In this document: positions 526-47,826 of the stretch, in pieces
How positions within the stretch are numbered: position 1 is the first letter of the stretch
Layout: each line of letters opens with the position of its first letter
IMG/VR virus record: IMGVR_UViG_3300033552_000012
Coordinates: 1 to 52,053 of that record
Direction: 5' to 3' (one strand)
From: a virus
Lineage: Duplodnaviria > Caudoviricetes
Length of the DNA: 52,053 nt
Position numbers and translations under genes: made by a program
The notes under the pieces: generated by a model
Told to the model about the DNA's origin: nothing
The model's database searches: none
Seen by the model: the letters and a program-made list of their open reading frames with translations, nothing else

Positions 526-717
526 TTAAAAAGGGCAATATGGCTTTTTAGGTTTGGGCAGTAATGATGAATACTCACTTTTTATCTTTTCTGAAATTGC
601 CTCACGAATAAATTGAGCCACATTAATTTGATAGCTATCTAGTTTCTTTAAAGTCTGGTGTTGAACTTCGGTTATTTTAATTACCTTGACTTTAGTATAT
701 TTTAAAGGTGTTGCCAT
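526..717 (-). CDS. Small ribbon-helix-helix-like DNA-binding protein at the cassette-array boundary
   Basis: Beta-like KVKVIKI followed by two helices (QHQTLKKL; NVAQFIREAISEKI). Confidence 0.6.
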   Translation of the reverse strand: MATPLKYTKVKVIKITEVQHQTLKKLDSYQINVAQFIREAISEKIKSEYSSLLPKPKKPYCPF

Positions 718-737
718 AATAAAGTAATACTTTTATA

Positions 738-766
738 GGTTATAGCCAATAGTTATATTCCAGCTT
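738..766 (+). other. Left terminal half-site of the array (attI/secondary-site-like ATAG^TT)
   Basis: GTTATATTCCAGCTT at 752 pairs with the right arm of cassette 1 (1010-1025) but has no upstream AAC hairpin. Confidence 0.6.
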
Positions 767-800
767 CGAGCAACTTTCTGGCGAAAGGTACTATTGCTTT

Positions 801-986
801 TTATTTACGCTTCTTTTTCTTTGAAATAAGGTGTGTCATTTTGTTTCTAATTTTCTTGTATTCAATATTTATTTCTGCTTTATACATCATAATATCATTT
901 GCATTACTTATACCCATAGGAACTATTACGGTAGAATAACTTGAAATAGTAATTCCTCTTTCTTTTCTTTCGTCGATTGGTTGCAT
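801..986 (-). CDS. Cassette 1 protein (contains ERKERGITISS)
   Basis: 61 aa ORF between arms 752 and 1025. Confidence 0.7.
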   Translation of the reverse strand: MQPIDERKERGITISSYSTVIVPMGISNANDIMMYKAEINIEYKKIRNKMTHLISKKKKRK

Positions 987-1021
987 AATATTTTATTTTA
1001 TCAGTCAAAAAGCCGAGAATA

Positions 1022-1152
1022 TAACATATGATACAATAGATTTTCGGCATTTTTGATTATTGATTTATCTGTCTGTACTTGTTATTATTTGTAATGGCCA
1101 GAAAGTATAGTTCTTGGCCATTCCGAAAAACCTCCCGTATCATAAGCCGTTA
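1022..1152 (+). repeat. attC-like hairpin site S1 (131 bp)
   Basis: TAAC-a-tatgatac...ttttcgg / ccgaaaa...gtatcata-agcc-GTTA. Confidence 0.85.
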
Positions 1153-1161
1153 CAAGCAAGT

Positions 1162-1530
1162 TTAAACGAAAGTGCATTCAATCTCTTTTAGAATTAAAGT
1201 TGCATAATATTTACTATTCTCAATAGCATTTTTACCAGTAAGATTAAATTTTTTATAACTCTCAACCACTTCTTTTATAGTCTCGGTTGTTATCGTTGAA
1301 AATAAATTGGTGTCAAGTGCTTTTTCTTGCTCTTCTATAGCATCAATAATCTTTTGGCATTCCTCATAATTTTCATCAAATTCAAAATATTCTAAAACGT
1401 ATAGAACAGATAATATTCCATACATAAACATATACTTCCTATAAATTTTAGTGGAAGTCAAAAAACCTGCTTGTAACAGTGGTTTTGATAAAGCGGGTAT
1501 TGTTTTTGTGTTTAAATTATTTTTACTCAT
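1162..1530 (-). CDS. Cassette 2 hypothetical protein; starts inside the S2 loop
   Basis: 122 aa; the N-terminus IPALSKPLLQAGF is encoded by the hairpin arm. Confidence 0.75.
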   Translation of the reverse strand: MSKNNLNTKTIPALSKPLLQAGFLTSTKIYRKYMFMYGILSVLYVLEYFEFDENYEECQKIIDAIEEQEKALDTNLFSTITTETIKEVVESYKKFNLTGKNAIENSKYYATLILKEIECTFV

Positions 1531-1598
1531 TTTATTATTTAGTTTACTTGTTATTATTTGTCTTAAATTTCCCGCCTTCTCAAAGCCACGAAACGTTA
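1474..1598 (+). repeat. attC-like hairpin site S2 (125 bp)
   Basis: TAAC-a-gtggttttgataaagcggg / cccgccttctcaaagccac-gaaac-GTTA. Confidence 0.9.
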
Positions 1599-1607
1599 GC
1601 AGGAATA

Positions 1608-1856
1608 CTATAATTCGTGCATTGAAGAAATATCGTTTCGAAAATCTTTTTCGCTTAGTATTTTATTTCTACATATAAAATCAAACAAATCTTTTACGTT
1701 TTTTAAATATTCCGTGTCTTTTCCCCGATGTTTAAATAATAACCAGTTCATTGTTGGGTGTTTTTCTAGCCTAAAATTTAAAATTTTAAAAGACCTTGGT
1801 TTTGCAATAAATCCTAATTGCAACATTATTTCTGTTGTTATTTTAGTGTTTTCCAT
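1608..1856 (-). CDS. Cassette 3 hypothetical protein
   Basis: 82 aa ORF filling the cassette. Confidence 0.75.
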   Translation of the reverse strand: MENTKITTEIMLQLGFIAKPRSFKILNFRLEKHPTMNWLLFKHRGKDTEYLKNVKDLFDFICRNKILSEKDFRNDISSMHEL

Positions 1857-1890
1857 AATAATATTTTGTTGTTAAAATCCGTACTCCTGC

Positions 1891-2018
1891 TAACACACGT
1901 CTGTAGCTATTGTGGAATTAGTGATTAATTTTTAATTGGTTTTGTTTCAGTATTATTTTAGCAACTCCGAAATATTACGCATTTTTGCCCCACAACAGCA
2001 ACAGGCGTGGGAACGTTA
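1891..2018 (+). repeat. attC-like hairpin site S3 (128 bp)
   Basis: TAAC-a-cacgtctgtagctattgtgg / ccacaacagcaacaggcgtg-ggaac-GTTA. Confidence 0.9.
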
Positions 2019-2255
2019 GCGGTCATTGCAATTCGTTACATCTCCACATTTACTACAATAAGTACCTGTTCCGTTTTTATTACACATAGGCATATTCGCA
2101 TAAAGCAACGAACCGCTAACACATGATTGTAGTAATTGCATTTCTTGTGCTTGTTTAAATCCTTCCTTAAAGCCGTCTCTTTGCCCGCCAAAACTATTCG
2201 GGTTAGTACCATATCTTTTTTCCGATAACTCCTTTATTTCTTCAACTGTTTTCAT
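2016..2255 (-). CDS. Cassette 4 protein; N-terminal half encoded within S4, Cys-rich C-terminal half
   Basis: 79 aa; QLLQSCVSGSL crosses the site; the stop is the TAA of the S3 TAAC on the - strand. Confidence 0.7.
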   Translation of the reverse strand: MKTVEEIKELSEKRYGTNPNSFGGQRDGFKEGFKQAQEMQLLQSCVSGSLLYANMPMCNKNGTGTYCSKCGDVTNCNDR

Positions 2256-2313
2256 TCTTGTTTTTATTTGTGATTAATTTAATTATGCAACTACGACAAT
2301 CATGCGTCCGTTA
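2117..2313 (+). repeat. attC-like hairpin site S4 (197 bp, coding loop)
   Basis: TAAC-a-catgattgtagtaattgcat / atgcaactacgacaatcatg-cgtcc-GTTA. Confidence 0.85.
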
Positions 2314-2335
2314 GGGTGCATAGCTACATTTTTCG

Positions 2336-2575
2336 CTACGAAAACTCTTTACCGCAAATATTACACCTCAATAAGTTACTCCCAATATAACTACTTTTTT
2401 CTCTTGGATGCGTACATTCTAATATCCCCAGTTCGTAAGCTTCTGATAAAGTTAATTCTCTACCATAGGTCATTCCTTTAAATTTATATTCTAAACTTAT
2501 TGATTCTCCAATAATAAAAACTTTTGCGGTAATATTAGTTTTTCCATCTACATGCTTTATAATAATTGTTTTCAT
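2336..2575 (-). CDS. Cassette 5 gene c, zinc-ribbon-like C-terminus
   Basis: 79 aa; CTH...CNICGKEF. Confidence 0.7.
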   Translation of the reverse strand: MKTIIIKHVDGKTNITAKVFIIGESISLEYKFKGMTYGRELTLSEAYELGILECTHPREKSSYIGSNLLRCNICGKEFS

Positions 2576-2580
2576 ATATT

Positions 2581-2760
2581 TTATTTGTAAATTGTAAATT
2601 CTATTGGATGTAATTTATATGTTTTATTGTAAAACCCTTTTTTTATTTCCCATTTATCCCATTTTTTAGTATTCCAAAAAAGTATAACTATTGAGATTTT
2701 TTTTATTTTTATCTCCACAAGAGGGAAATCCATGTATCTTTCTATAACTTCTATTTTCAT
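2581..2760 (-). CDS. Cassette 5 gene b (59 aa, below the ORF-track cutoff)
   Basis: Manual translation MKIEVIERYMDFPLVEIKIKKISIVILFWNTKKWDKWEIKKGFYNKTYKLHPIEFTIYK. Confidence 0.6.
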   Translation of the reverse strand: MKIEVIERYMDFPLVEIKIKKISIVILFWNTKKWDKWEIKKGFYNKTYKLHPIEFTIYK

Positions 2761-2762
2761 AA

Positions 2763-2918
2763 CTATATTTTTTTATTATTGTCTAAATATATTTTCATAG
2801 CTGTTGTTGTAACTTTATTAATTGCGGAATGATTATTCATTGTTAACCTCATAAATTCCTCCCAATCATAATATCCGTGCTTTTCAGCCGATAAATTCTT
2901 TGTTTTATTTATTGTCAT
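2763..2918 (-). CDS. Cassette 5 gene a (51 aa)
   Basis: Manual translation MTINKTKNLSAEKHGYYDWEEFMRLTMNNHSAINKVTTTAMKIYLDNNKKI; abuts the next ATG. Confidence 0.6.
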   Translation of the reverse strand: MTINKTKNLSAEKHGYYDWEEFMRLTMNNHSAINKVTTTAMKIYLDNNKKI

Positions 2919-2953
2919 AATTATATTTATTTTTAATTACCCACTACGCACCC

Positions 2954-3080
2954 TAACACAGGTTTTGCCCCATTGCTTTTATTTGTACTTTTTTGGATTT
3001 ACGGTGTCGTATTTAAAGTTTAGTAATTTCTGATTTAACGGTGATTATCACCGCAACGATGGCAAAGCCTGATAACGTTA
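2954..3080 (+). repeat. attC-like hairpin site S5 (127 bp)
   Basis: TAAC-a-caggttttgcc...attgc / gcaac...ggcaaagcctg-ataac-GTTA. Confidence 0.9.
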
Positions 3081-3099
3081 TGCGTTATTTAACAGAACG

Positions 3100-3525
3100 T
3101 TATCGATTAACAATTCTATTTAATTGCCGTTTGCACCATTCTTCAACTTCTTGAACATTTTTAGCGGGTGAAACTCTGCTTTTATCGTTTACTTCTTTTC
3201 GATACTCGTATTGTTCTTCGTAATTTTTAGAATAAATACTTTCTAGTAATTTTTCTACTTCTGGATATTTCTTGTTGTCAAACTCTTTCCAGAACTCTTT
3301 TAAAGTCCAATACGAAACTTTCAAAGCATCTTGATTGGTTTGGCAGTAGAAGCCCTTTTTATGATTAATACAAGAAGTCGGAGAGCAACATCCAGTTTCA
3401 CCACAACTTGAACAATAAGGACAGTAAACATCGTATTTTCTATTTCTAAAAATATGTTTGAATTTAGAAAAACAACGCATAACAGCGGTTTTGAGCAAGC
3501 GGGCTTTAGTCTTTAATTCACTCAT
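3100..3525 (-). CDS. Cassette 6 Cys-rich protein; starts inside the S6 loop
   Basis: 141 aa; LLKTAVMRCF crosses the site; CPYCSSCGETGCCSPTSC. Confidence 0.75.
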   Translation of the reverse strand: MSELKTKARLLKTAVMRCFSKFKHIFRNRKYDVYCPYCSSCGETGCCSPTSCINHKKGFYCQTNQDALKVSYWTLKEFWKEFDNKKYPEVEKLLESIYSKNYEEQYEYRKEVNDKSRVSPAKNVQEVEEWCKRQLNRIVNR

Positions 3526-3603
3526 TTGGTGTGTTTTTATTATTAGTGATTAATTCAATTATTCGGTTTTATTTTTCCGCCTGCACAAAGCCACGAAACG
3601 TTA
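3480..3603 (+). repeat. attC-like hairpin site S6 (124 bp)
   Basis: TAAC-a-gcggttttgagcaagcgg / ccgcctgcacaaagccac-gaaac-GTTA. Confidence 0.9.
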
Positions 3604-3616
3604 TAGCTTATGGCTA

Positions 3617-3850
3617 TTATTGGTTAATTAAGAAGTTTTCAATATCACCCAACAATGTGTCAATTTCTCCTTTTCTTTTTAGAATTTCATCGTATTCTTT
3701 TTTAGCAAGTTCATAATCTTCACTTTCTGGTTGGTCGGCATCTTCTTGCCATTGCATTGCCTCGTCATCAACTTCATCTGAATACTCTTGTCTTTTATCT
3801 TCTAAAAACTGTTTAAATTCGTTTAATGCTTCGTCTTTTGTTGTCATCAC
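3617..3850 (-). CDS. Cassette 7 acidic helical protein
   Basis: 77 aa, D/E-rich. Confidence 0.75.
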   Translation of the reverse strand: MMTTKDEALNEFKQFLEDKRQEYSDEVDDEAMQWQEDADQPESEDYELAKKEYDEILKRKGEIDTLLGDIENFLINQ

Positions 3851-3879
3851 GTTTTGTTTTAGTTACCCACCACAAGCTA

Positions 3880-4008
3880 TAACAGCAATTTGTGGTAATT
3901 TGGGTATTAGTTATTAATTTTTTTTTTGGTCTTGTATTTGTAAAATCTGTCTTGAATCGGTACTTTAGGATTTATTTATCCCAAACTACCACAAGTTGCA
4001 GGGCGTTA
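3880..4008 (+). repeat. attC-like hairpin site S7 (129 bp)
   Basis: TAAC-a-gcaatttgtggtaatttggg / cccaaactaccacaagttgc-agggc-GTTA. Confidence 0.9.
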
Positions 4009-4275
4009 TGCAACAGTTTCAGAACGTTCTCGTTTAAAAATTTCTAAAAGTTCTGAATCTGTCTTATTTGAATATTTACCGCTTGAATCAAAACGAGTGC
4101 TTAAAAACCAATTTGCAAAATCAATAGTCTGTTTATCTACTAATTCTTCTATTTTACAAATACATTCTTCGTGATTGTAAATTCTTTTTTCTAATAAACT
4201 CTTTAATTCATTTGATAAAACCGATTGCATAACAGCCGTTTTGCTCAATGTCGGTATTGTTTTATCTTTGTCCAT
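4006..4275 (-). CDS. Cassette 8 protein; starts inside the S8 loop
   Basis: 89 aa; IPTLSKTAVMQSV crosses the site; stop lies in the S7 TAAC. Confidence 0.75.
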   Translation of the reverse strand: MDKDKTIPTLSKTAVMQSVLSNELKSLLEKRIYNHEECICKIEELVDKQTIDFANWFLSTRFDSSGKYSNKTDSELLEIFKRERSETVA

Positions 4276-4357
4276 ATTGTTTTTAATTTAATTATTAGTC
4301 TATTTTTGTTATTATCCGTGTTGAATTTTCCGCCACTAAGCAAAGCAGCGAACGTTA
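4230..4357 (+). repeat. attC-like hairpin site S8 (128 bp)
   Basis: TAAC-a-gccgttttgctcaatgtcgg / ccgccactaagcaaagcagc-gaac-GTTA. Confidence 0.9.
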
Positions 4358-4603
4358 GGGAACATCTTCCTCAACTTTGTCGCCAAAAGTTTCGTTAAAA
4401 TAATCTTCTCTTTTATCGGATACCATTTTATCCCAGCTCATGGTCATAAATCCGTCGTTCCAAGTTTCTTTTAGTTGTTGTTTTTCTTTTTCTAAAAGTT
4501 TCTCCGCTTCAATTTGACAAAATCTTAAAAGTGTATTTGAAATATCACTTTCTTTTCGTTTGTCTTTAATAATTTCTATTAATTCTTGCAATGCTGTTTT
4601 CAT
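4355..4603 (-). CDS. Cassette 9 hypothetical protein (MKTALQELIE...EKEKQQ...DYFNETF type)
   Basis: 82 aa; stop lies in the S8 TAAC. Confidence 0.75.
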   Translation of the reverse strand: MKTALQELIEIIKDKRKESDISNTLLRFCQIEAEKLLEKEKQQLKETWNDGFMTMSWDKMVSDKREDYFNETFGDKVEEDVP

Positions 4604-4642
4604 AATTTTATTTTTAATTTATTAGTCAAAAAGCCGAGAATA

Positions 4643-4697
4643 TAACATATGCTTGTAAAAATGGCTTTATCGCCACTATTACAAGCGTCCACCGTTA
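4643..4697 (+). repeat. attC-like hairpin site S9 (55 bp, minimal, apparently chimeric)
   Basis: TAAC-at-atgcttgtaaaaatggc / gccactattacaagcgt-ccacc-GTTA. Confidence 0.85.
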
Positions 4698-4919
4698 TAC
4701 GTCAGCTTCTTTGGAATCGTCAGAAACATAATCTACATAAGGATATGTTTTATTTATAAAAGTTACAGTATAACTACAAGTTATACTGTTGCATTTATGT
4801 GGATATTGGGGTGGATGAGTTGTAAAACATTGTCCAGTTGGTCTTAAATAACCATCTTCACATTCAGGGCATTTAAAGTCTATTTTTACTGTTTTTACTT
4901 GTTTAATTTCTTGTGGCAT
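4695..4919 (-). CDS. Cassette 10 zinc-ribbon protein
   Basis: 74 aa; CPEC...HKC...C; stop lies in the S9 TAAC. Confidence 0.75.
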   Translation of the reverse strand: MPQEIKQVKTVKIDFKCPECEDGYLRPTGQCFTTHPPQYPHKCNSITCSYTVTFINKTYPYVDYVSDDSKEADV

Positions 4920-4966
4920 AATTTTTTATTTTTTGATTAATATTTATTTTAACAAAGCCGAACGCA

Positions 4967-5037
4967 TAACAGCAGTTTTGACTTACCGCCAAAATCTCGC
5001 TGGTACAGAGGTGGCATTTCAAGGCTGCGAAACGTTA
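4967..5037 (+). repeat. attC-like hairpin site S10 (71 bp)
   Basis: TAAC-a-gcagttttgacttaccgcc / ggtggcatttcaaggctgc-gaaac-GTTA. Confidence 0.85.
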
Positions 5038-5049
5038 GTGATAATACAC

Positions 5050-5298
5050 CTATCGCAATTGCATTTTGTTGTAAAACTCAAATTTATTATCCGTAAGACA
5101 TTCGTATTTTATGAGTTTCCATCCGTCTTTATTTGCAATTAATAACATTTCATTATCAATGTACTTCATATCTTTTTCATCCCAACTATTTGAGAATTTA
5201 CCATCATTAATATTTAGCCAGCAATAGCGAAAAGTACTATCACTAACAGCAGTCTTGAGAGATTGTGGTATCGGTGTGTTTTTGTCTATATTTTCCAT
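5050..5298 (-). CDS. Cassette 11 protein; starts inside the S11 loop
   Basis: 82 aa; IPQSLKTAVSDST crosses the site. Confidence 0.75.
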   Translation of the reverse strand: MENIDKNTPIPQSLKTAVSDSTFRYCWLNINDGKFSNSWDEKDMKYIDNEMLLIANKDGWKLIKYECLTDNKFEFYNKMQLR

Positions 5299-5372
5299 AA
5301 TTTAATTATTAATGTTTATTTGTTGTTATTTGTCTTGAATAATCCACAACCTTGCAAGGTTGCGAAACGTTA
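5244..5372 (+). repeat. attC-like hairpin site S11 (129 bp)
   Basis: TAAC-a-gcagtcttgagagattgtgg / ccacaaccttgcaaggttgc-gaaac-GTTA. Confidence 0.9.
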
Positions 5373-5384
5373 TAAGTAATACTA

Positions 5385-5534
5385 TTATCTCTTTTCCATA
5401 ATTCCATATATCTCATTGTAAGCGTAATTTTCGCTAAAATCATTCAATGCATCTACAATGTCTTCCGCATCTACTGTTATGGTGTAATAACCATATTCTG
5501 TGTGTTCATAAAACACGATAAATTCTTTTTCCAT
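5385..5534 (-). CDS. Cassette 12 small acidic protein (49 aa)
   Basis: Manual translation MEKEFIVFYEHTEYGYYTITVDAEDIVDALNDFSENYAYNEIYGIMEKR. Confidence 0.65.
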   Translation of the reverse strand: MEKEFIVFYEHTEYGYYTITVDAEDIVDALNDFSENYAYNEIYGIMEKR

Positions 5535-5559
5535 AATTACTTTTATTTTAAATTACCCA

Positions 5560-5592
5560 TTTCGAAAAACCACGCATAGTTGCGAGACGTTA
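5560..5592 (+). repeat. Degenerate terminal site S12 (right half only)
   Basis: ...gttgc-gagac-GTTA resembles the S11 end gttgc-gaaac-GTTA; no AAC arm upstream. Confidence 0.55.
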
Positions 5593-6063
5593 CTCTTTTT
5601 TGTATTTTTCAAATGCCAAAATAGCCTTTTCTTTTGCGTAATAACTAACGTTTCCGGAAAGTCTTTTCTTCTCTAATTTTTCCTTATCAGCGATATAAAA
5701 AGCCTTGAATGTATTGAAACCAAACATCGTCATTAATTCCTGGTTGCTGATATACATACTCATATCAACAGACTCTTTTTTACAGCTTAACAGCTCTTTT
5801 ATGTGTTCTAGGTTTTTAAGCGAATAATATGTGCTACTTCGGTTAAACTTTGGGGTATCGCCTAAAGTAGCAAACAGCCTTTTTAGTTTTACCGCCCCTA
5901 TATTATATTCTTCTCGCAAATAAACCGCACTGACATGATTTTCTACTTCGCTGTCTTTTATCCAACTGCCTTTTACTCTACATTGCCCTCGTTTTTCACT
6001 GTAAGGAACTGCTGTGGTGAACATCGTTATCGGGTTCAAGTTTTTCTTCCAAAATTCTACCAT
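5590..6063 (-). CDS. Hypothetical protein, possible DNA-binding
   Basis: 157 aa downstream of the exonuclease; stop lies in the S12 TAAC. Confidence 0.7.
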   Translation of the reverse strand: MVEFWKKNLNPITMFTTAVPYSEKRGQCRVKGSWIKDSEVENHVSAVYLREEYNIGAVKLKRLFATLGDTPKFNRSSTYYSLKNLEHIKELLSCKKESVDMSMYISNQELMTMFGFNTFKAFYIADKEKLEKKRLSGNVSYYAKEKAILAFEKYKKE

Positions 6064-6067
6064 AATT

Positions 6068-6838
6068 TTATTTGTTGATTAGTTCAATTGCGGCTAAAAC
6101 TCTTTCGGTCAGAAAATCCTTGTCTGCCTGTGGGACTTCAAAACGGATGATATTTACACTATCTATTCCGCTTTCTTTATAAACATAAGGAAGTTCGCCT
6201 TCTTTGGCATATTCTACTTTCCAATATGGATTGTCAAGAGTAGTGTTATATGCTTTTATTTCAGCTAATTCTTCTAGGTAAGGCATAAAAATGATCAACT
6301 CGGCATATTTAGAGTTTAAAATAATAGAGTTGGAAACTAATTGCCAATAATATTTTTCGCCTTCTTTGGATTGTTTTCTAATTTGCTGAATTACTTCATC
6401 CCCGTTAAAACTTTCTTTTTTAGTAACAGTTAAACCATCAAAATCATAAATAAATTTAATCAAATTATAAAAGGCTTTCCTGGTTAAAGGACATTTTATA
6501 TCAGTGATTGTATCACAACAATCATTTATAATTACCTGACCGTCAGGAGTACCGCACCATTCTTGAATTTCAGGATGTGGATAGGTTATTTCAGACTGCA
6601 TAATGTAAGAAAGAGGTAATTTATCGTGTACAATAATCTCACACAGTTTACCCCAGCTAAAAGCCTTTACATCACTTTCCAATTCCAATTTATGCTTAAA
6701 AAAACGCTCCATTATACATTCGTCTACATAAGTGTAAAAAGGCGCACCAAAACTATCCTTTGTCCTTCCGTTGGAAACTAAAGAAACGATTTCAGATGAG
6801 GTGATATTTCCGATTCTAATATTTGATAATTCACTCAT
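6068..6838 (-). CDS. YqaJ/lambda-exonuclease-like 5'-3' exonuclease
   Basis: RIGNITSSE, WGK.CE, GTPDG, DIKCP, YYWQL motifs; adjacent to an annealase. Confidence 0.8.
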   Translation of the reverse strand: MSELSNIRIGNITSSEIVSLVSNGRTKDSFGAPFYTYVDECIMERFFKHKLELESDVKAFSWGKLCEIIVHDKLPLSYIMQSEITYPHPEIQEWCGTPDGQVIINDCCDTITDIKCPLTRKAFYNLIKFIYDFDGLTVTKKESFNGDEVIQQIRKQSKEGEKYYWQLVSNSIILNSKYAELIIFMPYLEELAEIKAYNTTLDNPYWKVEYAKEGELPYVYKESGIDSVNIIRFEVPQADKDFLTERVLAAIELINK

Positions 6839-7493
6839 GGTTCACATTTTTTAATAATTTAATTGCTTTTTCGTAACTTAATTTTTCTTTAGTGTCTATA
6901 ATTCTTTCGTAGTGCAATTGCTCCTCAGGACTGATGAATTCTTTTTTGATTTCGTAAATTTGTTTGAGTTCCGGCAAAGTATTTTCCAGTGCCACTTTCA
7001 CTTCTTTAAAATCTTCTTTATTATAAATATCATTAGCAATACCGATTTCGGCAGCACATTTTTTTAATGCGTCAGTAGATGCAGCTTTTAAATCATTTCC
7101 TATGGATAAAGGAATCTTATCAATTCCTTTTTGTATTTCATCTTGATTCTGCTTGCGATACATAATATCCTTGTTACCAAATTGCATTTTTATAATTGTT
7201 TTTCCTGCACTACGACACGTTAAACGCCCTTTTACAATTGCTTCACCGTGCAATATTTTTTCGTCTATAATTTCAAAATCCCAATCCCAACCAAACATTA
7301 AGTTCAGGCATTTTTTAACATAACCTCCCGTAACATATTCCCAAGTACCTCCGCCCTTCGCTGGACGTTGTTTTACGTACTGTTTTGGCGTTCTTTTCAG
7401 TATTAAAGCTAATTGGTTCGCATTTAAATTATTGTCCTCTACAAGGCTTAAATCACTAGCTTCAATTAAAGCTAATTCGTTATTGTTTTCCAT
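6831..7493 (-). CDS. Rad52/Sak-like single-strand annealing recombinase
   Basis: RPAKGGGTWEYV...LNLMFGWDW...LKAASTDALKKCAAEIGIANDIY is a Rad52/22-type pattern. Confidence 0.85.
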   Translation of the reverse strand: MENNNELALIEASDLSLVEDNNLNANQLALILKRTPKQYVKQRPAKGGGTWEYVTGGYVKKCLNLMFGWDWDFEIIDEKILHGEAIVKGRLTCRSAGKTIIKMQFGNKDIMYRKQNQDEIQKGIDKIPLSIGNDLKAASTDALKKCAAEIGIANDIYNKEDFKEVKVALENTLPELKQIYEIKKEFISPEEQLHYERIIDTKEKLSYEKAIKLLKNVNHE

Positions 7494-7496
7494 AAT

Positions 7497-7715
7497 TTAA
7501 GAATTTAAGTATCTTTTAATCTCGGTTAATAATATTTTAGGTGATTTTCCTTGCATTACTTTAGCAATCAAACCACTATCCATATAAACATATAAGGTGC
7601 TGCGGCTAATGCCTAAAATTTCGCATGCTTCACTTAGAGAAACCGCTTCATTTTCTTCTTTTTTCTTTCTAATTTCTTCCAATATTTTTTTGGAAGATTC
7701 GCTATTCGTTTTCAT
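7497..7715 (-). CDS. Excisionase-like HTH (HTH_17) protein
   Basis: VSLSEACEILGISRSTLYVYMDSG. Confidence 0.8.
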   Translation of the reverse strand: MKTNSESSKKILEEIRKKKEENEAVSLSEACEILGISRSTLYVYMDSGLIAKVMQGKSPKILLTEIKRYLNS

Positions 7716-34180: not shown

Positions 34181-36958
34181 ATGGCGACACTTTTAATAAC
34201 TAAAAAACCATCTAACGAATATTCCTTTATTGTAAACGGGAATACTTCGGATGAGATATTGAATCTAAGAAATGACCTTACGGTGGTGGGGAACAAATGC
34301 CATTTTAAGACTTCCAACGGAGCGAATTTAATTAAGGAACAGAATATTACCTTTAGTGATGTGACGCTAGTGGCGACAGGTACATTCACCTTTGTATCGG
34401 TTTATGCGTTGTTTTCTAAATTAAAAGAAGTTGGTTTTTTCGATTGGATAAGCGGTAGCGGGACTATTGGTGGCGCTACTAAATTCTCAGCTCTTGACGA
34501 CACTTTTGCGTATTTCGGTAAAGCTGGAAAAGCAGTGGTGGTTTCCAATGATGAATTACGCCTTGAAACAATAACCATTCATAATTACAGGAAATTTGTT
34601 GACTTGGAAGATACTTTTGATGTGATTGTACCCAATAAGATGCTTGTCACAGACAGCGCTGGGACGGGCATTATTCTACGGGATATTCCGCAAAGCCAAG
34701 TTGACAACCTTCCGTTTAACAATAGGATAAAGACCAAGACAGGATTTACTTTAGTGGGTCGTGATTTAACGGTTAATCCATCATGGGAGTGGGCATTGCA
34801 AGGAATAGATTACATAAATCTAGAATCACAAGTTGTTACCTTTCCCTATTCAGCAACCGGACTTTCAAGAATTGATTATGTAGTTCCCAATAATACTAAT
34901 GGTTTCAACAGGATAATAGGTCAGGAAAGCACAACTCCTGTAGCTCCGCAAATACCATACGAGGGGATGTATGTCACTTTTGTATTAGTAACTGATGCTA
35001 GTGTGGATTCAAATGGAGAGCCTGATTTAAGTGCTTACGCTACTACGCAATATGTGGATGGAAAAGATGCGCAGAAAGTAGATAAAGTAACAGGGAAAAG
35101 TTTACTTTTAGATACCGAAATCACACGTCTTGCTACATTGGCGAACTACACGCATCCTGCCAACCATCCGCCAAGTATCATTACCCAAGACGCAAGTAAT
35201 AGATTTGTGACAGATGCGGAGAAATCAACATGGAACGCTAAACAATCAGCATTAGGGTTTACACCTGAAAATGTAGCCAATAAAAACATAGCGAGTGGAT
35301 ATGCAGGATTAGGGGTTGATGGAAAACTTCTCTCTGCACAACTCCCCAGTATCACTATTTCAGACACTTTTGTAACAGCTTCGCAAGCTGCTATGCTTGC
35401 TGTTATAGCGCAGACAGGAGATGTAGCAGTACGAACCGATTTAAACAAAACATTTATATTAAAGGGTATAGACCCTACATTACTATCAGATTGGCAGGAA
35501 TTACTAACACCGACAAGTGCAGTAACGACTGTTTTTGGACGTAATGGAGTAGTTACCTCACAACTTGGAGACTACACAGCAGACCAAATAAATGAAACTG
35601 CTACTAGGGTGTTTCAAACAGTTGATCAAAGAACGAACAACGATGCAACAAGTCCGATACAGGCTCAAATAAATTTAAAAGCACCTTTAGCATCACCGGT
35701 ATTAACAGGAACACCAACAGCACCGACAGCCACAGCTGGAACAAACACCACGCAATTAGCAACAACAGCTTTTGTAACAGGTGCGGTAAGTAGCGCTAAT
35801 GGGAGTTTTGTTACATTAACTGGTAACGAAACGATAACTGGTCAAAAAACTTTTACTAACGCAAGTCCTATTTTATTAACTCAAAATGCGGTAGCTAAAG
35901 CTATTAGAGAGGTAAATGGGCAGGCTGGATTTAGCGTACAGGGTGGGAATGCCTCTCTCGCTAATGGAATGTTTAATACCTCCATGGATAGGGGCATATC
36001 TTTTTCTGCTTACGGAAACCCAAGTAGCTCAGGTAGGGCGTTTTATGCACAACTAGACCCAAGTAGTACGGTCATACCTTTTCAAGTTAATTTTAATGCG
36101 GCTACAACTTTTACACTTACAAAAGAAGGAGCAACAACAGCTTCATCATTTATAAAATCAGGTGCAACAACTACAGATGCATTATTAGCGGGCGGGACTA
36201 CCTTGGCTAATCCGATAAGTGGCACAGGAACAAACGGCAATATCGTAAAGTGGACAGCAGCAGGAACGCAAGGTAATAGTATAATGCAAGAAGTGGGCGC
36301 TGAAATACAAGTTAACGGAAATATTAAAGGAGGTTCAGCTACCTTCTCATCAAGTGTAACGGCAAATGGGGATGGTAGTTTTAACATCAAAAGGGCAAGC
36401 GACGATTTAACAGTAGCTTCTTTAAGCATTAATACAATTACTTCTGTAGCAAAATTAAATACTGCGTATTCTTTTCTTTCTTTTGAAACAGACAATATTG
36501 AAAGGGCGAGATTTTTCAATGGGAATTTATTAATAGGAAGTTCCACCAATGACGGATTTAATAAACTACAAGTGACTGGTAGTGCAAAAATAACATCACT
36601 AGGAGGCACAGGCTCACGAGTAGTTACAGCGGATGCAAGTGGGAATTTAAGTGCTACTAATACGTTAGATAATTTGACCATTATTCCAATAGAACTTGGA
36701 ACAGCCACAACCTTATCATCTACCCATAACGGATTGCCTTTGATTATAACAGCAAGTTGTACTATAACAATCCCAAATGGATTAGCAGCTGGGTTTAATA
36801 CTTCTATAATTACTTTAGCGGGCGTTACTGTTACTATTGCTTTGGGTAGTTCAGTTGTATTATTTAACAATACGGGTTTGACAATGCCTGAAAAATTAAG
36901 TTTCACTTTACAAGCAAGAACGACAACAAATAATTATATCACAACGGGTAACCTTTAA
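34181..36958 (+). CDS. Long tail fibre protein
   Basis: YTHPANHPPSII, VTTVFGRNG, APLASPVLTGTPTAPTA, ETITGQKTF fibre motifs. Confidence 0.85.
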   Translation: MATLLITKKPSNEYSFIVNGNTSDEILNLRNDLTVVGNKCHFKTSNGANLIKEQNITFSDVTLVATGTFTFVSVYALFSKLKEVGFFDWISGSGTIGGATKFSALDDTFAYFGKAGKAVVVSNDELRLETITIHNYRKFVDLEDTFDVIVPNKMLVTDSAGTGIILRDIPQSQVDNLPFNNRIKTKTGFTLVGRDLTVNPSWEWALQGIDYINLESQVVTFPYSATGLSRIDYVVPNNTNGFNRIIGQESTTPVAPQIPYEGMYVTFVLVTDASVDSNGEPDLSAYATTQYVDGKDAQKVDKVTGKSLLLDTEITRLATLANYTHPANHPPSIITQDASNRFVTDAEKSTWNAKQSALGFTPENVANKNIASGYAGLGVDGKLLSAQLPSITISDTFVTASQAAMLAVIAQTGDVAVRTDLNKTFILKGIDPTLLSDWQELLTPTSAVTTVFGRNGVVTSQLGDYTADQINETATRVFQTVDQRTNNDATSPIQAQINLKAPLASPVLTGTPTAPTATAGTNTTQLATTAFVTGAVSSANGSFVTLTGNETITGQKTFTNASPILLTQNAVAKAIREVNGQAGFSVQGGNASLANGMFNTSMDRGISFSAYGNPSSSGRAFYAQLDPSSTVIPFQVNFNAATTFTLTKEGATTASSFIKSGATTTDALLAGGTTLANPISGTGTNGNIVKWTAAGTQGNSIMQEVGAEIQVNGNIKGGSATFSSSVTANGDGSFNIKRASDDLTVASLSINTITSVAKLNTAYSFLSFETDNIERARFFNGNLLIGSSTNDGFNKLQVTGSAKITSLGGTGSRVVTADASGNLSATNTLDNLTIIPIELGTATTLSSTHNGLPLIITASCTITIPNGLAAGFNTSIITLAGVTVTIALGSSVVLFNNTGLTMPEKLSFTLQARTTTNNYITTGNL

Positions 36959-37334: not shown

Positions 37335-37657
37335 TGGGTTTTGTATTGTTTTTAATTGCATACAGTTTTTTTTTACCATTAACCATTATCAATTATTGCG
37401 TGGTAAAAAACAAAAAAGGGTATTTTAAATCATCTGCTATCAATTTGGATAAGTTTGGAAATAGAGAATTTAGGACATTGTTAAATCTGACTTTAAGAAC
37501 GCAAAAAGGCTATGAGTTTGGTAATATGAACGAAACCATATCAGGCGTTTTAGGAAAAAATGAAAGGGATAACACCTTGACAAAAACAGGTAAAACAGTA
37601 GTTTGGATTTTAGATAAATTAGACAATAACCACGCGCAAAAAAGCATTGACAAATGA
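37334..37657 (+). CDS. Membrane-associated hypothetical protein
   Basis: Start re-assigned to the TAATG overlap at 37334; LDKFGN...ETISGVLGK...LDNNH. Confidence 0.65.
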   Translation: MGFVLFLIAYSFFLPLTIINYCVVKNKKGYFKSSAINLDKFGNREFRTLLNLTLRTQKGYEFGNMNETISGVLGKNERDNTLTKTGKTVVWILDKLDNNHAQKSIDK

Positions 37658-39168
37658 ACTTAGTAACACGGCAGATTTACGGACTAAAAAAAATAAGCTC
37701 ACCCAACACCTTTATAGGCGGGGTTTCTCCAACTATTGGAACGGCTCAATTGTTAGCTACTGCCTTGGCTATTAACGTAAGTATGATTACAAATTTCTCA
37801 GTTGTAGGGAGTGATATTAAATGCCGTATTACGGGCAGTTATGTGATTCCTGGGAATTGTTTTTTAAACAGTACCTCTATTACTTCTTTTATAGATAAAG
37901 ATAATTTAGTTACTAATATTGGTGAAAGTTCTTTCCGTAATACAACACTTATTTCAGAGCTTAATTTTGAGGGAGTCATTACTCACTCAGCACCCTTTTC
38001 TAATCGAAACTCTAACGTAAAGAGAGTAATATTAAAAAATTGCACCGCTATCACCGCAGGTACTTTTTATACGGACTCCTCTATAATGGAGTTTTATTAC
38101 ATCGCAAGGGCAACAACTCTTGGAAACACAGTTGGGGACGAAGGTATTTTTTATAATGCAAGCACCTATCCTGCTACGATTATCTATACCAACCCTTTTT
38201 TACAGACGAATAATGCGGGGAGTGAAGATGGAGATATTGCTTATGCACGTTCTAAAGGTTGTGTTATAAGGTATGTAACAAGCTTCACTGCTCCAAATCC
38301 AGTGACTACATTAACAACGGGAACGATTTATAACACGGCAATACAGTTGAATTTCACCCCGCCAAGCAGTGCCAATGCCATTGATTATTATGAATGTTAT
38401 GCTAATGGTGTTTTTTACAAAATAGGTGCAAGCGGAGATTACGTGACAAAATTAACAGCTTCAACTTCTTATGTTTTTACGATTTATGCAAGAGATATTT
38501 TTTATAATTTATCTTTAGTTTCAAATTCAATTACTCAATCGACAAATACAACTAATCCATCAGTTCCTACAACGGGTTTAGTTTCTTACTTCAAATTTGA
38601 TTCAAACTCAAACGACAGCTACGGTTTAAATAATGGGGTTGATACCTCCGTTACTTATGGTGTTGGAAAAATAGGAAACGCAGTGGTCTACAACGGTAGC
38701 ACGTCTAAAACCGTTATCGGAAATCCAGCTAATTTACAATTATCACAAGGTACTGTTTGTGCGTGGATAAAGACAAGCGGTGCGGGGAGTAGTTATAGAT
38801 GTATATTTTCAAAAGAAAATGCGTATGCCTTATTTTTAGTTGATGGGGTATTAATGTTTTACAACTGGGGGACTTTCGGGGCTGTTGGAAATAAATCGAC
38901 AGGAATAAACCTAAACGATGGCTTATGGCATCACGTAGCGTTAGTTTTTGAAAACGGAACGGCAAACAATTACATTTATATTGACGGGGTTTTGAAATTG
39001 ACTTTTTCAATGGGGGTCTTAAATCAGACCTCCCCATTTCAAATAGGGCAAAATTCAGGAACGCAATTTATAAACGCAACAATTGACGAAATGCCTATTT
39101 ATAGCACGAAATTAAAGCAGTTCCAAATAGATTTGATTTACAACGCAGGTACAGGAACAACATTATAA
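37654..39168 (+). CDS. Multi-domain adhesin/receptor-binding-like protein (LRR-like, FN3, LamG/concanavalin-like)
   Basis: VTNIGESSFRN, FN3-type LNFTPP...YVFTIYARD, LamG-type NDGLWHHVALV...IYIDG. Confidence 0.75.
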   Translation: MNLVTRQIYGLKKISSPNTFIGGVSPTIGTAQLLATALAINVSMITNFSVVGSDIKCRITGSYVIPGNCFLNSTSITSFIDKDNLVTNIGESSFRNTTLISELNFEGVITHSAPFSNRNSNVKRVILKNCTAITAGTFYTDSSIMEFYYIARATTLGNTVGDEGIFYNASTYPATIIYTNPFLQTNNAGSEDGDIAYARSKGCVIRYVTSFTAPNPVTTLTTGTIYNTAIQLNFTPPSSANAIDYYECYANGVFYKIGASGDYVTKLTASTSYVFTIYARDIFYNLSLVSNSITQSTNTTNPSVPTTGLVSYFKFDSNSNDSYGLNNGVDTSVTYGVGKIGNAVVYNGSTSKTVIGNPANLQLSQGTVCAWIKTSGAGSSYRCIFSKENAYALFLVDGVLMFYNWGTFGAVGNKSTGINLNDGLWHHVALVFENGTANNYIYIDGVLKLTFSMGVLNQTSPFQIGQNSGTQFINATIDEMPIYSTKLKQFQIDLIYNAGTGTTL

Positions 39169-44212: not shown

Positions 44213-45409
44213 ATGAGTAAATGGAGAATCTATGACGATGTCATTAAAACTATATTGCTGAATAATGAGGAATTATCAGACTGGAAGGTTTCTCAGATTG
44301 TCCTTAAAGCAGAAAGACCAACAACAGAATCAGACTTACTTCGGACTTATATCAAAAGGAATCGAAAAAGGCTATTAGATAAATTTGAAGGCAATTACAC
44401 CGCTACAGACGCGCTCGACATCGACAATACCACGGTAAAACACATGTGGGTAAAGAATAAAGAAGCTTCTTTATTTGTCAAAAACCCAAATTTTATTCCT
44501 CAGACAGAATCTGAAACCGACAACTTCAAGACTTTAAGCGATGCTTTAATTTATGACTTGAAGAACTACTCCCCCATTTTTAAAAAAATAGAATATGTAG
44601 AAAGTACTGATTCCTATTTATTAGTAGTTGACCCCGCAGATGTTCATGTAGGTAAATTATGTAGTGATTTTGAAGTTGGACAATCTTACAATAATCAAAT
44701 AGCGGTACAAAGAGCATTAGAAGGGGTTCGTGGATTATTGCAAAAAGCAAAAGGGTTTCATATAGACCAAATACTCTTTATAGGAGGAAACGATATTTTA
44801 CATATTGACAGCCCTGCCAGAAAAACAGCAAATGGAACACCACAAGACACGGACGGTATGTGGCACTCTAATTTTCTGATAGCCAAACAACTTTATGTTG
44901 ATATTTTAGAAATCCTTCTTGCCGTGGCTCCGGTTCATTTTGATTTTAATCCAAGCAATCACGACTATACCAACGGTTTCTTTTTATCTCAGGTTATAGA
45001 GGCTTATTTTAGACATTGCAAAGAACTTACTTTCAATACTTCAATCGCTCACCGAAAATACTACAAATACCATAAAAATCTTATCGGAACTACCCACGGA
45101 GACGGTGCAAAAATGACTGACTTACCGATGCTTATGGCTACTGATAAACCTGTTGAATGGGCTGAAACAACACACCGATATGTTTATGTACATCATTTAC
45201 ACCACAAATGGAGTAAAGATATTTTTAGTGTTTGTGTAGAGGGATTAAGAAGTCCAAGCGGTACGGATTCCTGGCATCACCAAAAAGGATTTGAACACGC
45301 ACCGAAAGCGGTTGAAGGATTTTTGCACAGTAAAAATAACGGACAAATCGCCCGTTTAACCCATATTTTTAGCTTATTATTCATTGTTTTTTCGTATATT
45401 ACAGTATGA
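44213..45409 (+). CDS. Calcineurin-like metallophosphoesterase
   Basis: DVHVG, GNDILH, SNHD, HGD, HHLHH metal-binding motifs. Confidence 0.8.
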   Translation: MSKWRIYDDVIKTILLNNEELSDWKVSQIVLKAERPTTESDLLRTYIKRNRKRLLDKFEGNYTATDALDIDNTTVKHMWVKNKEASLFVKNPNFIPQTESETDNFKTLSDALIYDLKNYSPIFKKIEYVESTDSYLLVVDPADVHVGKLCSDFEVGQSYNNQIAVQRALEGVRGLLQKAKGFHIDQILFIGGNDILHIDSPARKTANGTPQDTDGMWHSNFLIAKQLYVDILEILLAVAPVHFDFNPSNHDYTNGFFLSQVIEAYFRHCKELTFNTSIAHRKYYKYHKNLIGTTHGDGAKMTDLPMLMATDKPVEWAETTHRYVYVHHLHHKWSKDIFSVCVEGLRSPSGTDSWHHQKGFEHAPKAVEGFLHSKNNGQIARLTHIFSLLFIVFSYITV

Positions 45410-46044
45410 TAGGAATATATAAAATTACAAATCCAAACGGAAGAGTTTACATAGGGCAAAGTATCAATATAGAAAGACGTTTTGATTCTTATTCAAGATG
45501 TGATTGCAAAGGACAAACCAAAATATACAACTCGATAAAGAAACATGGGTTTTTAAAGCATAAGGTAGAAGTTCTTGTTTATTGTGATATATCTGAATTA
45601 AATGAAAAAGAGGCTTATTATATAGAATTATATAATTCAAATAGCAGTTCTGATTTAAATTGCGGAGTTCCTAGATATTTAAATAAATCAGGATATTTAT
45701 CAGAAGAGACAAAAGCTAAAATGACATTAGCACAAACAGGCAATAAAAAATGGCTAGGTAAAAAACATAAAGAATCTACTAAGATTAAAATGTCAATAGC
45801 TCAGATGGGAAAAAAAGTAAGTAAAGAAACTTGTCTTAAAATATCTGAATCTAAAAAAGGTATTAATCCAAAGCATTTTGTAGAAATTCATCCAAACGCT
45901 AAAATAGTTTTAAATTTATCAAATGGAGTTTTTTATAAAAGTTTAAAAGAAGCTTCTTTAGATTATAATATTAATTACAATACATTAAAAAGTTATCTAA
46001 GTGGTAACATAAAAAAAAATAAAAGTGATTTAATTTACGCGTAA
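45406..46044 (+). CDS. GIY-YIG homing endonuclease with NUMOD3-like repeats
   Basis: GIYKITN..GRVYIGQS; repeated SEETKAKM/KESTKIKMS/SKETCLKIS. Confidence 0.9.
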   Translation: MIGIYKITNPNGRVYIGQSINIERRFDSYSRCDCKGQTKIYNSIKKHGFLKHKVEVLVYCDISELNEKEAYYIELYNSNSSSDLNCGVPRYLNKSGYLSEETKAKMTLAQTGNKKWLGKKHKESTKIKMSIAQMGKKVSKETCLKISESKKGINPKHFVEIHPNAKIVLNLSNGVFYKSLKEASLDYNINYNTLKSYLSGNIKKNKSDLIYA

Positions 46045-47193: not shown

Positions 47194-47826
47194 TTAATAA
47201 ATTCCTATTTGATGATTAAATTGTTTTCGTAGATCGAGTCTTTCGGGGGCGTTGTATATCCGGTCTTGCAGTTGCAACCACTTTACAATTCCGTTAGCGA
47301 TACTTATTTTTTCTTGATATTCATCTTTAGCCATTTTAAGCAACGGATATTTCGCAACGATGTCAAACTTTACATATTCCCAATAATCCTTGCTGTATCG
47401 CTTTATTAGCCCTAGATCGTATTGCTGTATATTACCTCCTTTGGCACAATTGCAATTATAATCTTGCAGGTGCAAATTATCTAGATTGAACCGGATGGAA
47501 GGATTTGATTTTACAGTATGAAAATGTCCTGCTTGTGGCGTAGTGTTTCCGTTACAGGAAATACAACCCGATTTTAGGTCGATAAGACAGCAAATCTTAT
47601 TAATTGGTTTTTCAAGGTCTTTTTGCCAATCAGTGAGTGTTTTTAACTTGTCCTTAATAAGGACTTTTTCTTTGTTCCAATCCTGTTTTACTTTCTTTTC
47701 CTTATCGACTTTTTGCTTGGCTACAACTCCCATGGAATAGGAAACTTTGCATTCAATTTTATCACAATGTTTTTGCAAAAAATATTTGGGTTCAAACTTA
47801 TCAGAACATATTTTACACCTCGGCAT
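47194..47826 (-). CDS. ninG: NinG/Rap-like recombination endonuclease
   Basis: N-terminal CxxC...C....C, CISC...QAGHF...RFNLDNLHLQ...CN. Confidence 0.8.
   Translation of the reverse strand: MPRCKICSDKFEPKYFLQKHCDKIECKVSYSMGVVAKQKVDKEKKVKQDWNKEKVLIKDKLKTLTDWQKDLEKPINKICCLIDLKSGCISCNGNTTPQAGHFHTVKSNPSIRFNLDNLHLQDYNCNCAKGGNIQQYDLGLIKRYSKDYWEYVKFDIVAKYPLLKMAKDEYQEKISIANGIVKWLQLQDRIYNAPERLDLRKQFNHQIGIY

Follow-up and report, generated by a model that had tools for sequence, protein, structure and literature searches.

A probable integron-like gene-cassette array, with no recombinase gene of its own and with genes inverted relative to their sites, in a tailed phage

The sequence analysed here, a 52,053-bp IMG/VR record of a tailed phage (IMGVR_UViG_3300033552_000012; the whole record is hereafter the window), contains at 752-5592 an array in which small genes alternate with 11 imperfect hairpins, each bounded by TAAC and GTTA and all packed into 4.4 kb. 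The cassette genes without exception lie on the minus (bottom) strand and run towards a fixed junction, beyond which stands a gene for a ribbon-helix-helix (RHH)-like protein. A first-pass annotation of the same DNA had called the array integron-like and had given a length for each of the eleven hairpins, all of which were found again with exactly those lengths. On the plus strand every hairpin follows a single plan, comprising TAAC, one nucleotide, a stem of about 20 bp, a loop, the return stem, four or five unpaired nucleotides and GTTA; the stems have two fixed mismatch positions, and double changes occur at nine of 16 predicted pairs. A covariance model (R1) of 12 short hairpins, ten of which come from other phages and one prophage and one of which is H10 of the window, matched nine of the 11 hairpins, always on the minus strand, missed H1 and H4 at E <= 0.01 and found nothing outside the array in the rest of the window. 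The sequences that flank each gene are termed arms below, and their pairing is scored out of 12 with a 1-nt bulge allowed. The units of the array and its fixed end are listed here with their open reading frames (ORFs); hairpin coordinates are those of the plus strand, and a caret marks the proposed crossover point.

526-717, minus strand: RHH-like gene, 63 aa (phrog_25647, PHROG match at 4e-28; weak DUF6290 match), which marks the fixed end of the array
718-755, minus strand: putative attI-like junction, fixed, the conserved backbone reaching as far as G^TTA at 752-755 (gene strand, TAA^C)
752-1152, minus strand: C1, consisting of arm, ORF 801-986, second arm and hairpin H1 (1022-1152, 131 nt); arms 10/12; H1 missed by R1
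1150-1598, minus strand: C2, ORF 1162-1530 (start in hairpin loop) and H2 (1474-1598, 125 nt); arms 10/12; R1 36.6 bits
1596-2018, minus strand: C3, ORF 1608-1856 and H3 (1891-2018, 128 nt); arms 9/12; R1 31.6 bits
2016-2313, minus strand: C4, ORF 2016-2255, largely within H4 (2117-2313, 197 nt); arms 10/12 with a bulge; H4 missed by R1
2311-3080, minus strand: C5, ORFs 2336-2575, 2581-2760 and 2763-2918 and H5 (2954-3080, 127 nt); arms 9/12; R1 44.3 bits
3078-3603, minus strand: C6, ORF 3100-3525 (start in loop; alternative ATG directly past GTT) and H6 (3480-3603, 124 nt); arms 9/12; R1 45.0 bits
3601-4008, minus strand: C7, ORF 3617-3850 and H7 (3880-4008, 129 nt); arms 9/12; R1 30.8 bits
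4006-4357, minus strand: C8, ORF 4006-4275 (start in loop) and H8 (4230-4357, 128 nt); arms 10/12 with a bulge; R1 41.7 bits
4355-4697, minus strand: C9, ORF 4355-4603 and H9 (4643-4697, 55 nt); arms mismatched, 4/12
4695-5037, minus strand: C10, ORF 4695-4919 and H10 (4967-5037, 71 nt); arms 9/12 with a bulge
5035-5372, minus strand: C11, ORF 5050-5298 (start in loop) and H11 (5244-5372, 129 nt); arms 9/12; R1 23.0 bits
5370-5592, minus strand: C12, a damaged first cassette with ORF 5385-5534, half a hairpin and a GTTA at 5589-5592 that has no TAAC partner

The bases that follow one GTTA complement those that precede the next TAAC in ten of the 11 testable cassettes; the mean for 121 non-cognate pairs of arms is 4.2/12, a score of 9 being reached by 0.8% (permutation p <= 5e-5). 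The two flanks of one and the same hairpin show no complementarity (3-9 of 16). Both points bear out the first-pass annotation, which had reported non-complementary hairpin flanks and an offset complementarity in '10 of 12' cassettes, a figure that agrees with the present count (C9 fails and C12 has half a hairpin). Such an offset is what would be seen in a linear array if the two arms of each cassette paired in an excised circle and thereby extended the stem by 11-13 bp. The arms also have a fixed asymmetry, in that position 7 after GTTA is A on the plus strand and its partner is C, giving a G.T pair on the minus strand, and in a second class of arms a 1-nt bulge is followed by a G.T pair on the gene strand. 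A scan of the entire 52 kb for arm pairing recovered all 11 hairpins, together with eight weaker matches elsewhere that do not have the architecture of the array hairpins. The same architecture, arm rule and A/G asymmetry recur in phage 6H and its relatives, in IMG/VR contigs, in six cultured Muminvirus and Lillamyvirus phages and in Flavobacterium chromosomes, where 40 cassettes have a mean arm match of 9.2/12 against 5.2/12 for a same-site control; the asymmetry has the same site polarity in phages and bacteria. In a distant blastn search with the array the sole match was to hairpin H8 (window 4216-4357), which is 85% identical to a site of phage 6H. The Rfam comparison that the annotation had recommended gave no attC, Flavo-1 or other credible match, either at the gathering threshold or at E <= 10, and the site is thus not modelled there. 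By comparison of these sequences we assign the hairpins to an integron-like system, found in Bacteroidota and their phages, of which they are the attC-like sites.

The turnover of such arrays can be followed in cultured Muminvirus and Lillamyvirus phages of the Baltic Sea, which have several DNA methyltransferase cassettes and, in the six phages, 11-15 sites each; the blocks shared by the isolates compared are 99.5-100% identical. Relative to mumin6-1, with flanks 99.6-100% identical, filifjonk9-1 has an extra unit (arm, gene, second arm, TAAC-hairpin-G) exactly at the RHH-side fixed junction and also a run of three additional internal cassettes, the crossovers lying inside ACG^TTA. At the three-cassette difference the surviving mumin hairpin belongs wholly to one parent up to its GTTA and the next arm wholly to the other, while at the single-cassette difference at the backbone junction the hairpin is absent on one side and the sequence in common is just GTTATAAG. 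Across the six isolates 55 clustered block ends fall inside the arrays, every one at a hairpin boundary; 32/55 lie at the G of GTTA (+-6 nt), six at the terminal G^TTA, ten fall 12-27 nt within the neighbouring 3' arm, in stretches where the arms resemble one another, seven lie at TAAC, and none lies within a gene body or loop. It should be emphasized that these ends are shared among genomes, hence not independent, and represent roughly eight or more separate events by a count made by eye. Phages snork and sniff differ by a single cassette and mumin and snork in cassette order; the size differences of mumin6-2 and mumin9-3 lie outside the array, as judged from annotated gene coordinates. Because the breakpoints of near-identical phages fall at hairpin boundaries, the cassette is a hairpin plus the gene downstream of it on the gene strand, with the crossover at the 5' foot of the hairpin, a reversal of the classical layout. 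The annotation had envisaged a platform for gene acquisition and shuffling opened at G^TT, and indeed the gains, losses and reorderings in near-identical cultured phages end at G^TTA, the opposite of a fixed gene order with no gain or loss at that boundary.

Some arrays contain further rearrangements. In phage 6H (locus L021; 35343-36887) a hairpin is truncated just before its GAAAC-GTTA end and is followed by approximately 1.5 kb of other DNA, with an ORF whose annotation is a fragment of cytochrome c oxidase subunit I, and a cassette with the arm GGGAAC is present twice (34961-35342 and 37345-37726). In Flavobacterium genome G036 (locus L060, 3725-11078) a 399-nt cassette with identical arms occurs in four copies and cassettes of 518 and 655 nt occur twice each, which points to cassette duplication within one array.

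The junction at the RHH-like gene is constant on one side only. The 63-aa RHH-like ORF is the sole protein common to the window phage, phage 6H and L009, and hairpins lie directly upstream of it, in the same orientation, in 12 of the 14 IMG/VR loci that have at least 600 nt of upstream sequence. In 15 phages the RHH side of TAAC is conserved and the cassette side variable, and in 46 Mumin/Lillamyvirus records the backbone is at least 99.4% identical, and this identity ends 1-8 nt past GTTA. The palindrome AAGTATTACTT is present at the junction. Metagenome contigs, scored for presence only and with short sides at several joints, contain other sequence or cassettes joined to the backbone at 755/756, and in contigs of related phages an H8-like hairpin is joined to the C12 arm or to C1, the joints being at GTTA or TAAC. 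On this comparative evidence we take the junction to be a fixed site, apparently of the attI kind. In none of the 80 viral loci with a recombinase or the ten host loci, both described below, does the RHH-like gene occur. On a Flavobacterium fluviatile contig (L053, 8729-10186) three phage-orientation hairpins stand upstream of the RHH-like gene, probably as part of a prophage; this genome encodes the chromosomal recombinase as well, and has hairpins at contig ends. In the bacterial loci L064 (~2420-2440) and L063 (~2395-2410) the stop codon of the recombinase gene is followed after 100-200 nt by the first G^TTA, in the context ...GAG^TTA; the arms of the first cassette pair across this junction, and only its last 2-3 bases are like the phage junctions.

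The annotation had also noted the lack of a recombinase in the phage genome and had supposed that the array is mobilised in trans. Neither tyrosine (PF00589), serine (PF00239) nor Y1 (PF01797) recombinases gave a match in the 52,053-bp record, and PF00589 likewise gave none in the whole mumin6-1 genome, despite its recent cassette turnover. R1 matches were present in 34 of the 61 Flavobacterium genomes sampled, and in at least 13 of these 34 a match lies within 6 kb of the 3' end of a listed tyrosine recombinase gene. The search for such enzymes beside host arrays was thus positive, since in eight of the ten Flavobacterium loci fetched (L059-L065 and L068) a recombinase of 345-350 aa is followed by co-directional units of gene and hairpin; in the remaining two the sites were identified by the covariance model only. 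Up to 16 hairpins passed the orientation filter in one fetched stretch (17-18 kb). The protein that heads the Flavobacterium arrays is a 347-aa Xer/IntI-like tyrosine recombinase, and the proteins score 218-225 bits on NF040815 ('site-specific tyrosine recombinase/integron integrase'; cut-off 220), while the cut-off of the IntI model TIGR02249 was passed by none of 151 Flavobacterium genomes. Judged by these models the recombinase beside the arrays is IntI-like but not a canonical IntI, and for this reason 'integron' is used here for mechanism and layout, not for family membership. In IMG/VR, 197 stretches encode relatives of the Flavobacterium recombinase. Among the best 80 of these, which are 38-46% identical to it, 55 have at least two strong hairpins in phage orientation and four are of the bacterial orientation; where loci of phage orientation were inspected, 15 in all, the hairpins lie upstream of the recombinase match. 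Some phages therefore possess the full system, their recombinase gene occupying the end of the array at which the window phage has its RHH-like gene, and a candidate trans-acting enzyme exists in the Flavobacterium host group. The supposed mobilisation in trans is consistent with this finding that the same site family adjoins an Xer/IntI-like recombinase both in Flavobacterium chromosomes and in other phages.

Other proteins were considered in the same role. The window phage encodes a free-standing GIY-YIG/NUMOD3 homing endonuclease (45406-46044), a NinG/Rap junction endonuclease (47194-47826) and an HNH endonuclease (50531-51169); these and its HTH_17 protein (7497-7715) were set aside as candidates for the recombinase, none being common to all array-bearing phages. 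Readings based on IS200/IS605-type (Y1) or serine recombinases were rejected, such genes being absent from the record, as were pdif/XerCD modules, because the arms vary between cassettes and are not conserved protein-binding sites.

The two strands of the hairpins do not fold equally well. In 53 phage hairpins the gene-sense strand folds better in 44 and worse in eight (p = 6e-8), with 104 versus 50 G.T pairs, whereas in 45 hairpins from bacterial arrays it is the strand antisense to the gene that folds better in 30 and worse in 13 (p = 0.001), with 80 versus 51 G.T pairs. As the relation to the gene is opposite in phages and bacteria, the folding bias follows the polarity of the site and not the transcript. 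This points to a role for one strand of the DNA, as in the bottom strands of integron attC sites; an added RNA role of the hairpins in phages is possible.

The interpretation that we favour, with a probability of roughly 0.75, is that 752-5592 is a recombinase-less gene-cassette array of an integron-like Bacteroidota/phage system that would be mobilised in trans. It brings together how the sites are built and how their arms pair, the bias between strands, the positions of the natural breakpoints, the cassette variation at the junction and the recombinase linkage observed elsewhere. The folding strand of the attC-like hairpin ('bottom' by integron convention) would be the gene-carrying strand, and a Flavobacterium-type host or a co-infecting phage would supply in trans an Xer/IntI-like tyrosine recombinase that cuts the folded hairpin at its 5' foot, within TAA^C (read on the plus strand as G^TTA). 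The excised circle would comprise one hairpin and the gene downstream of it, its two arms pairing to lengthen the stem, and the place where such circles insert would be the fixed junction, which precedes the RHH-like gene by 35 nt. As the genes, and the recombinase gene where there is one, are inverted relative to the polarity of the sites, the hairpin precedes the gene and often supplies its start codon. Thus, of what the annotation had proposed, the cassette footprint, the shuffling and the mobilisation in trans are supported by the sequences; the inversion of the genes, the assignment of each hairpin to the gene downstream of it, the fixed end on the RHH side and a recombinase other than IntI are additions to it.

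The cargo of the window is largely anonymous, eight of ten cassette proteins having no PHROG family and the other two matching families of unknown function. The C6 protein has relatives in L009 and L144, and the C9 ORF has a 38% identical relative within a cassette of L027. An ATG in the loop opens the downstream gene in 31 of 71 unique phage hairpins, among the window cassettes in C2, C4, C6, C8 and C11. The family phrog_26174 matches solely residues 1-40 of the C8 protein (4006-4275), the stretch encoded by H8, and such leader peptides, encoded by hairpins, may be part of what unites some families of phage proteins. The hairpin-side arm of C9 is a copy of that of C1, the 3' arm of C12 resembles the arms of H10 and H11, and the stop codon of an ORF at 5590-6063 overlaps C12. 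The record itself is rated 100% complete by CheckV and contains siphovirus-type genes for terminase, portal and tape-measure proteins; its structural region gave no megablast match to cultured phages. The left 12 kb forms a leftward early operon, in which two genes for recombination proteins neighbour the array (phrog_4763/phrog_149 for the pair):

6068-6838, minus strand: exonuclease
6831-7493, minus strand: Rad52-like annealing protein (PF04098 at 7e-10)

It could be argued that these two proteins are all that the array requires, the hairpins being repeated regulatory spacers and the shuffling a matter of homologous or short-homology recombination through the exonuclease and the Rad52-like protein. 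This would resemble the PeSL elements of T4-type phages, described in the published text consulted as units of promoter and terminator stem-loop exchanged by homologous recombination (PMC2839356, PMC4122927). We regard this, the main rival to a cassette array, as unlikely, although the two genes lie directly upstream of the array both here and in L009, the hairpin arms have common sequence, hairpin-only and gene-only blocks of similarity occur, and the ten block ends within similar arms and the seven at TAAC are in keeping with it. Shuffling and mini-circles are, moreover, documented for PeSL in the part of that literature available (PMC2839356). Homologous exchange does not, however, generate arms that pair across each gene, as they do in 10/11 window cassettes and over the 40 bacterial ones, nor does it readily account for a backbone-junction difference in which the hairpin stands on one side only and just GTTATAAG is shared, or for a surviving hairpin at the three-cassette difference that is entirely of one parent up to GTTA. 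The array-bearing phage 6H, in addition, gives no tblastn match to the exonuclease/Rad52 pair, the Muminviruses have no annotated homologue of it, and the same sites adjoin tyrosine recombinases in bacteria and phages.

That the hairpins act solely in RNA, in the processing, stability or translation start of the early transcript, with no part in mobility, is considerably less probable still. The better-folding strand in phages is indeed the mRNA strand, loop ATGs open many of the downstream genes, as noted above, and in RNA the G.T pairs at conserved positions would become G.U; the bacterial arrays, however, fold better antisense to their genes, which unties the bias from the transcript, and an RNA function leaves the G^TTA breakpoints, the variable cassette at a fixed junction and the tyrosine recombinase linkage unexplained. 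We give least credence of all to independent insertion between pre-existing genes, whether of elements like miniature inverted-repeat transposable elements or repetitive extragenic palindromes or of simple terminators. Palindromic units of about 125 nt with conserved 4-nt ends, many to a genome, would suit such elements, but target-site duplications are absent, the flanks of any one hairpin are unrelated while those of each gene pair, near-identical phages differ by whole units of gene and hairpin and never by hairpins alone, and covariation preserves the stems as the sequence drifts.

Returning to the cassette array mobilised in trans, several observations weigh against it. Within the window C9, with arms at 4/12, and C12, with half a hairpin, break the arm rule. 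Part of the shuffling may be homologous, or on the other strand, and the minority of block ends on the TAAC side (seven of 55) could be other-strand recombination or homologous exchange. In distant phages hairpins and gene modules can be shared separately, and the hairpins flanking two shared gene modules do not exceed background in their likeness (0.67-0.69 against a median of 0.65). The closest relatives of the window phage by the neighbouring exonuclease (L006, L008, L011 and L012) have no array within 10 kb, and L002, another close relative by that gene, has one model match. In two IMG/VR loci (L028 and L029) the RHH-like gene is present along with the sequence conserved at the junction, where CAAC stands in place of TAAC, and there are no hairpins upstream; these may be empty or decayed entry sites. 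The Flavobacterium recombinase scores 202-214 bits on TIGR02249 against a cut-off of 265, in two stretches that leave out model positions ~180-238, and its chemistry may differ from that of IntI. The enzyme candidates, further, come from Flavobacterium genomes and other phages and not from the window phage's own host, and the acting enzyme, the single-stranded substrate and the circles are what we infer from sequence.

Integrons are the textbook gene-capture system, defined by IntI and seen mainly in Proteobacteria. Like the window array, integrons and clusters of attC sites with no integrase nearby (CALINs) have, in the text of Cury et al. (2016, PMC4889954) available to us, mostly single-gene cassettes and imperfect hairpin sites with outer boxes AAC and GTT, a spacer that stays unpaired and a loop that varies (55-197 nt). 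In both cases crossover is at G^TT, the complementarity of the outer boxes is shifted by one cassette, one strand folds better than the other, and entry is at a fixed site. If the hairpins are attC-type, the window array would itself be a CALIN, for which that source asks at least two clustered attC sites and no integrase nearby (PMC4889954). The G^TT boundaries with offset complementarity and the preferred bottom strand (44 vs 8 of 53 phage hairpins; 30 vs 13 of 45 bacterial) are present, and in general architecture and size range the hairpins agree with attC. There is, on the other hand, no intI next to the array (no PF00589 in the window), the spacer is asymmetric, with 1 versus 4-5 nt, no extrahelical bases have been identified, Rfam has no match, and the integron arrangement, in which a gene stands upstream of its attC on the top strand and is read from a promoter at the attI end, does not apply to the array genes, all of which run on the bottom strand towards the fixed junction. 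In contrast to integrons, moreover, the window genes lie on the folding (bottom) strand, the site comes before the gene, whose start codon it often contains, complementarity of the arms extends 11-13 bp beyond GTTA with a fixed G.T or bulge, and the recombinase linked to such sites elsewhere falls below the IntI cut-off and is without the IntI-specific region. The bacterial arrays of the same site family have the classical order of gene then site.

The closest published work is, in the portions of the sources consulted, that on rAID-1 arrays (Ross et al. 2019, 10.1101/471110) and on phage CALINs (Qi et al. 2023, PMC9892861). The rAID-1 arrays, as presented there, are found on the chromosomes of gut Bacteroidales, carry immunity genes and have an XerD-like recombinase, recognised by at least 44% identity to the B. 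fragilis protein, with co-directional genes and intergenic repeats 'reminiscent of integrons' (10.1101/471110). Their layout, a 5' XerD-like recombinase, at least two co-directional genes and intergenic repeats, is that of the Flavobacterium loci L059-L065 and L068, which are likened to them by layout alone; the window array differs from rAID-1, as far as that account goes, in being phage-borne, mirror-oriented and recombinase-less, and the available description reports no hairpin polarity, crossover point or phage arrays (10.1101/471110). Qi et al. list, in the text at hand, 17 CALINs (each with at least two predicted sites) among 10,705 phage genomes, which share with the window array clustered attC sites and the lack of an integrase; those of virulent phages include Polaribacter phage P12002L, with methyltransferase cargo (PMC9892861). 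R1 matches this phage at 30000-30064, between two methyltransferase genes. The word Flavobacterium does not occur in the text of that study to the extent available (PMC9892861), whose supplementary list could name some such phages. Because Flavobacterium phages are unnamed there although 46 Mumin/Lillamyvirus records carry the array backbone junction, standard attC models seem to miss most of this site family. PeSL, in the sources cited above, likewise places repeated stem-loop units between early phage genes that are small and non-essential and that are gained, lost and shuffled as modules, in contrast to which the window family has breakpoints at a 4-nt core, arms that pair across each gene and linkage to a tyrosine recombinase; no Bacteroidota-type promoter motif was seen on the gene strand, the loops having been read by eye against the consensus with no promoter scan. 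The words hairpin, palindrome, inverted repeat, stem-loop and integrase are absent from the paper describing the Baltic phages, and no paper on such arrays in Bacteroidota phages was found by title or abstract.

A broader view, for which we would put the odds at about even, is that Bacteroidota phages run a mirror-image integron devoid of IntI, in which cassettes of hairpin then gene, the hairpin serving as a translation-start module, would be taken up at a fixed site where an early operon has its 3' end, beside an Xer-like recombinase gene or an RHH-like gene (a possible accessory factor). Phages without the enzyme, the present one among them, would borrow it from co-infecting phages or from an array on the host chromosome, early genes such as those for anti-restriction would be traded at the timescale of a single bloom, and the pool would be kept apart from that of the host by gene orientation. 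Among the cassettes that have turned over in the Baltic phages, many encode DNA methyltransferases, and in the text consulted the original authors linked methyltransferase content to the plating efficiency of these phages (PMC7077304).

This study extends integron-type cassette grammar to phages of Flavobacterium-type bacteria, with a link to an Xer-like recombinase and with the genes flipped relative to the sites. It suggests that a phylum-wide system escapes standard integron finders, and that mobile cassettes account for many of the early phage genes labelled 'hypothetical'. The gain, loss and reordering of cassettes in near-identical Baltic phages offers a route to fast evolution of host range and counter-defence, one that can be tested in a laboratory phage-host pair.

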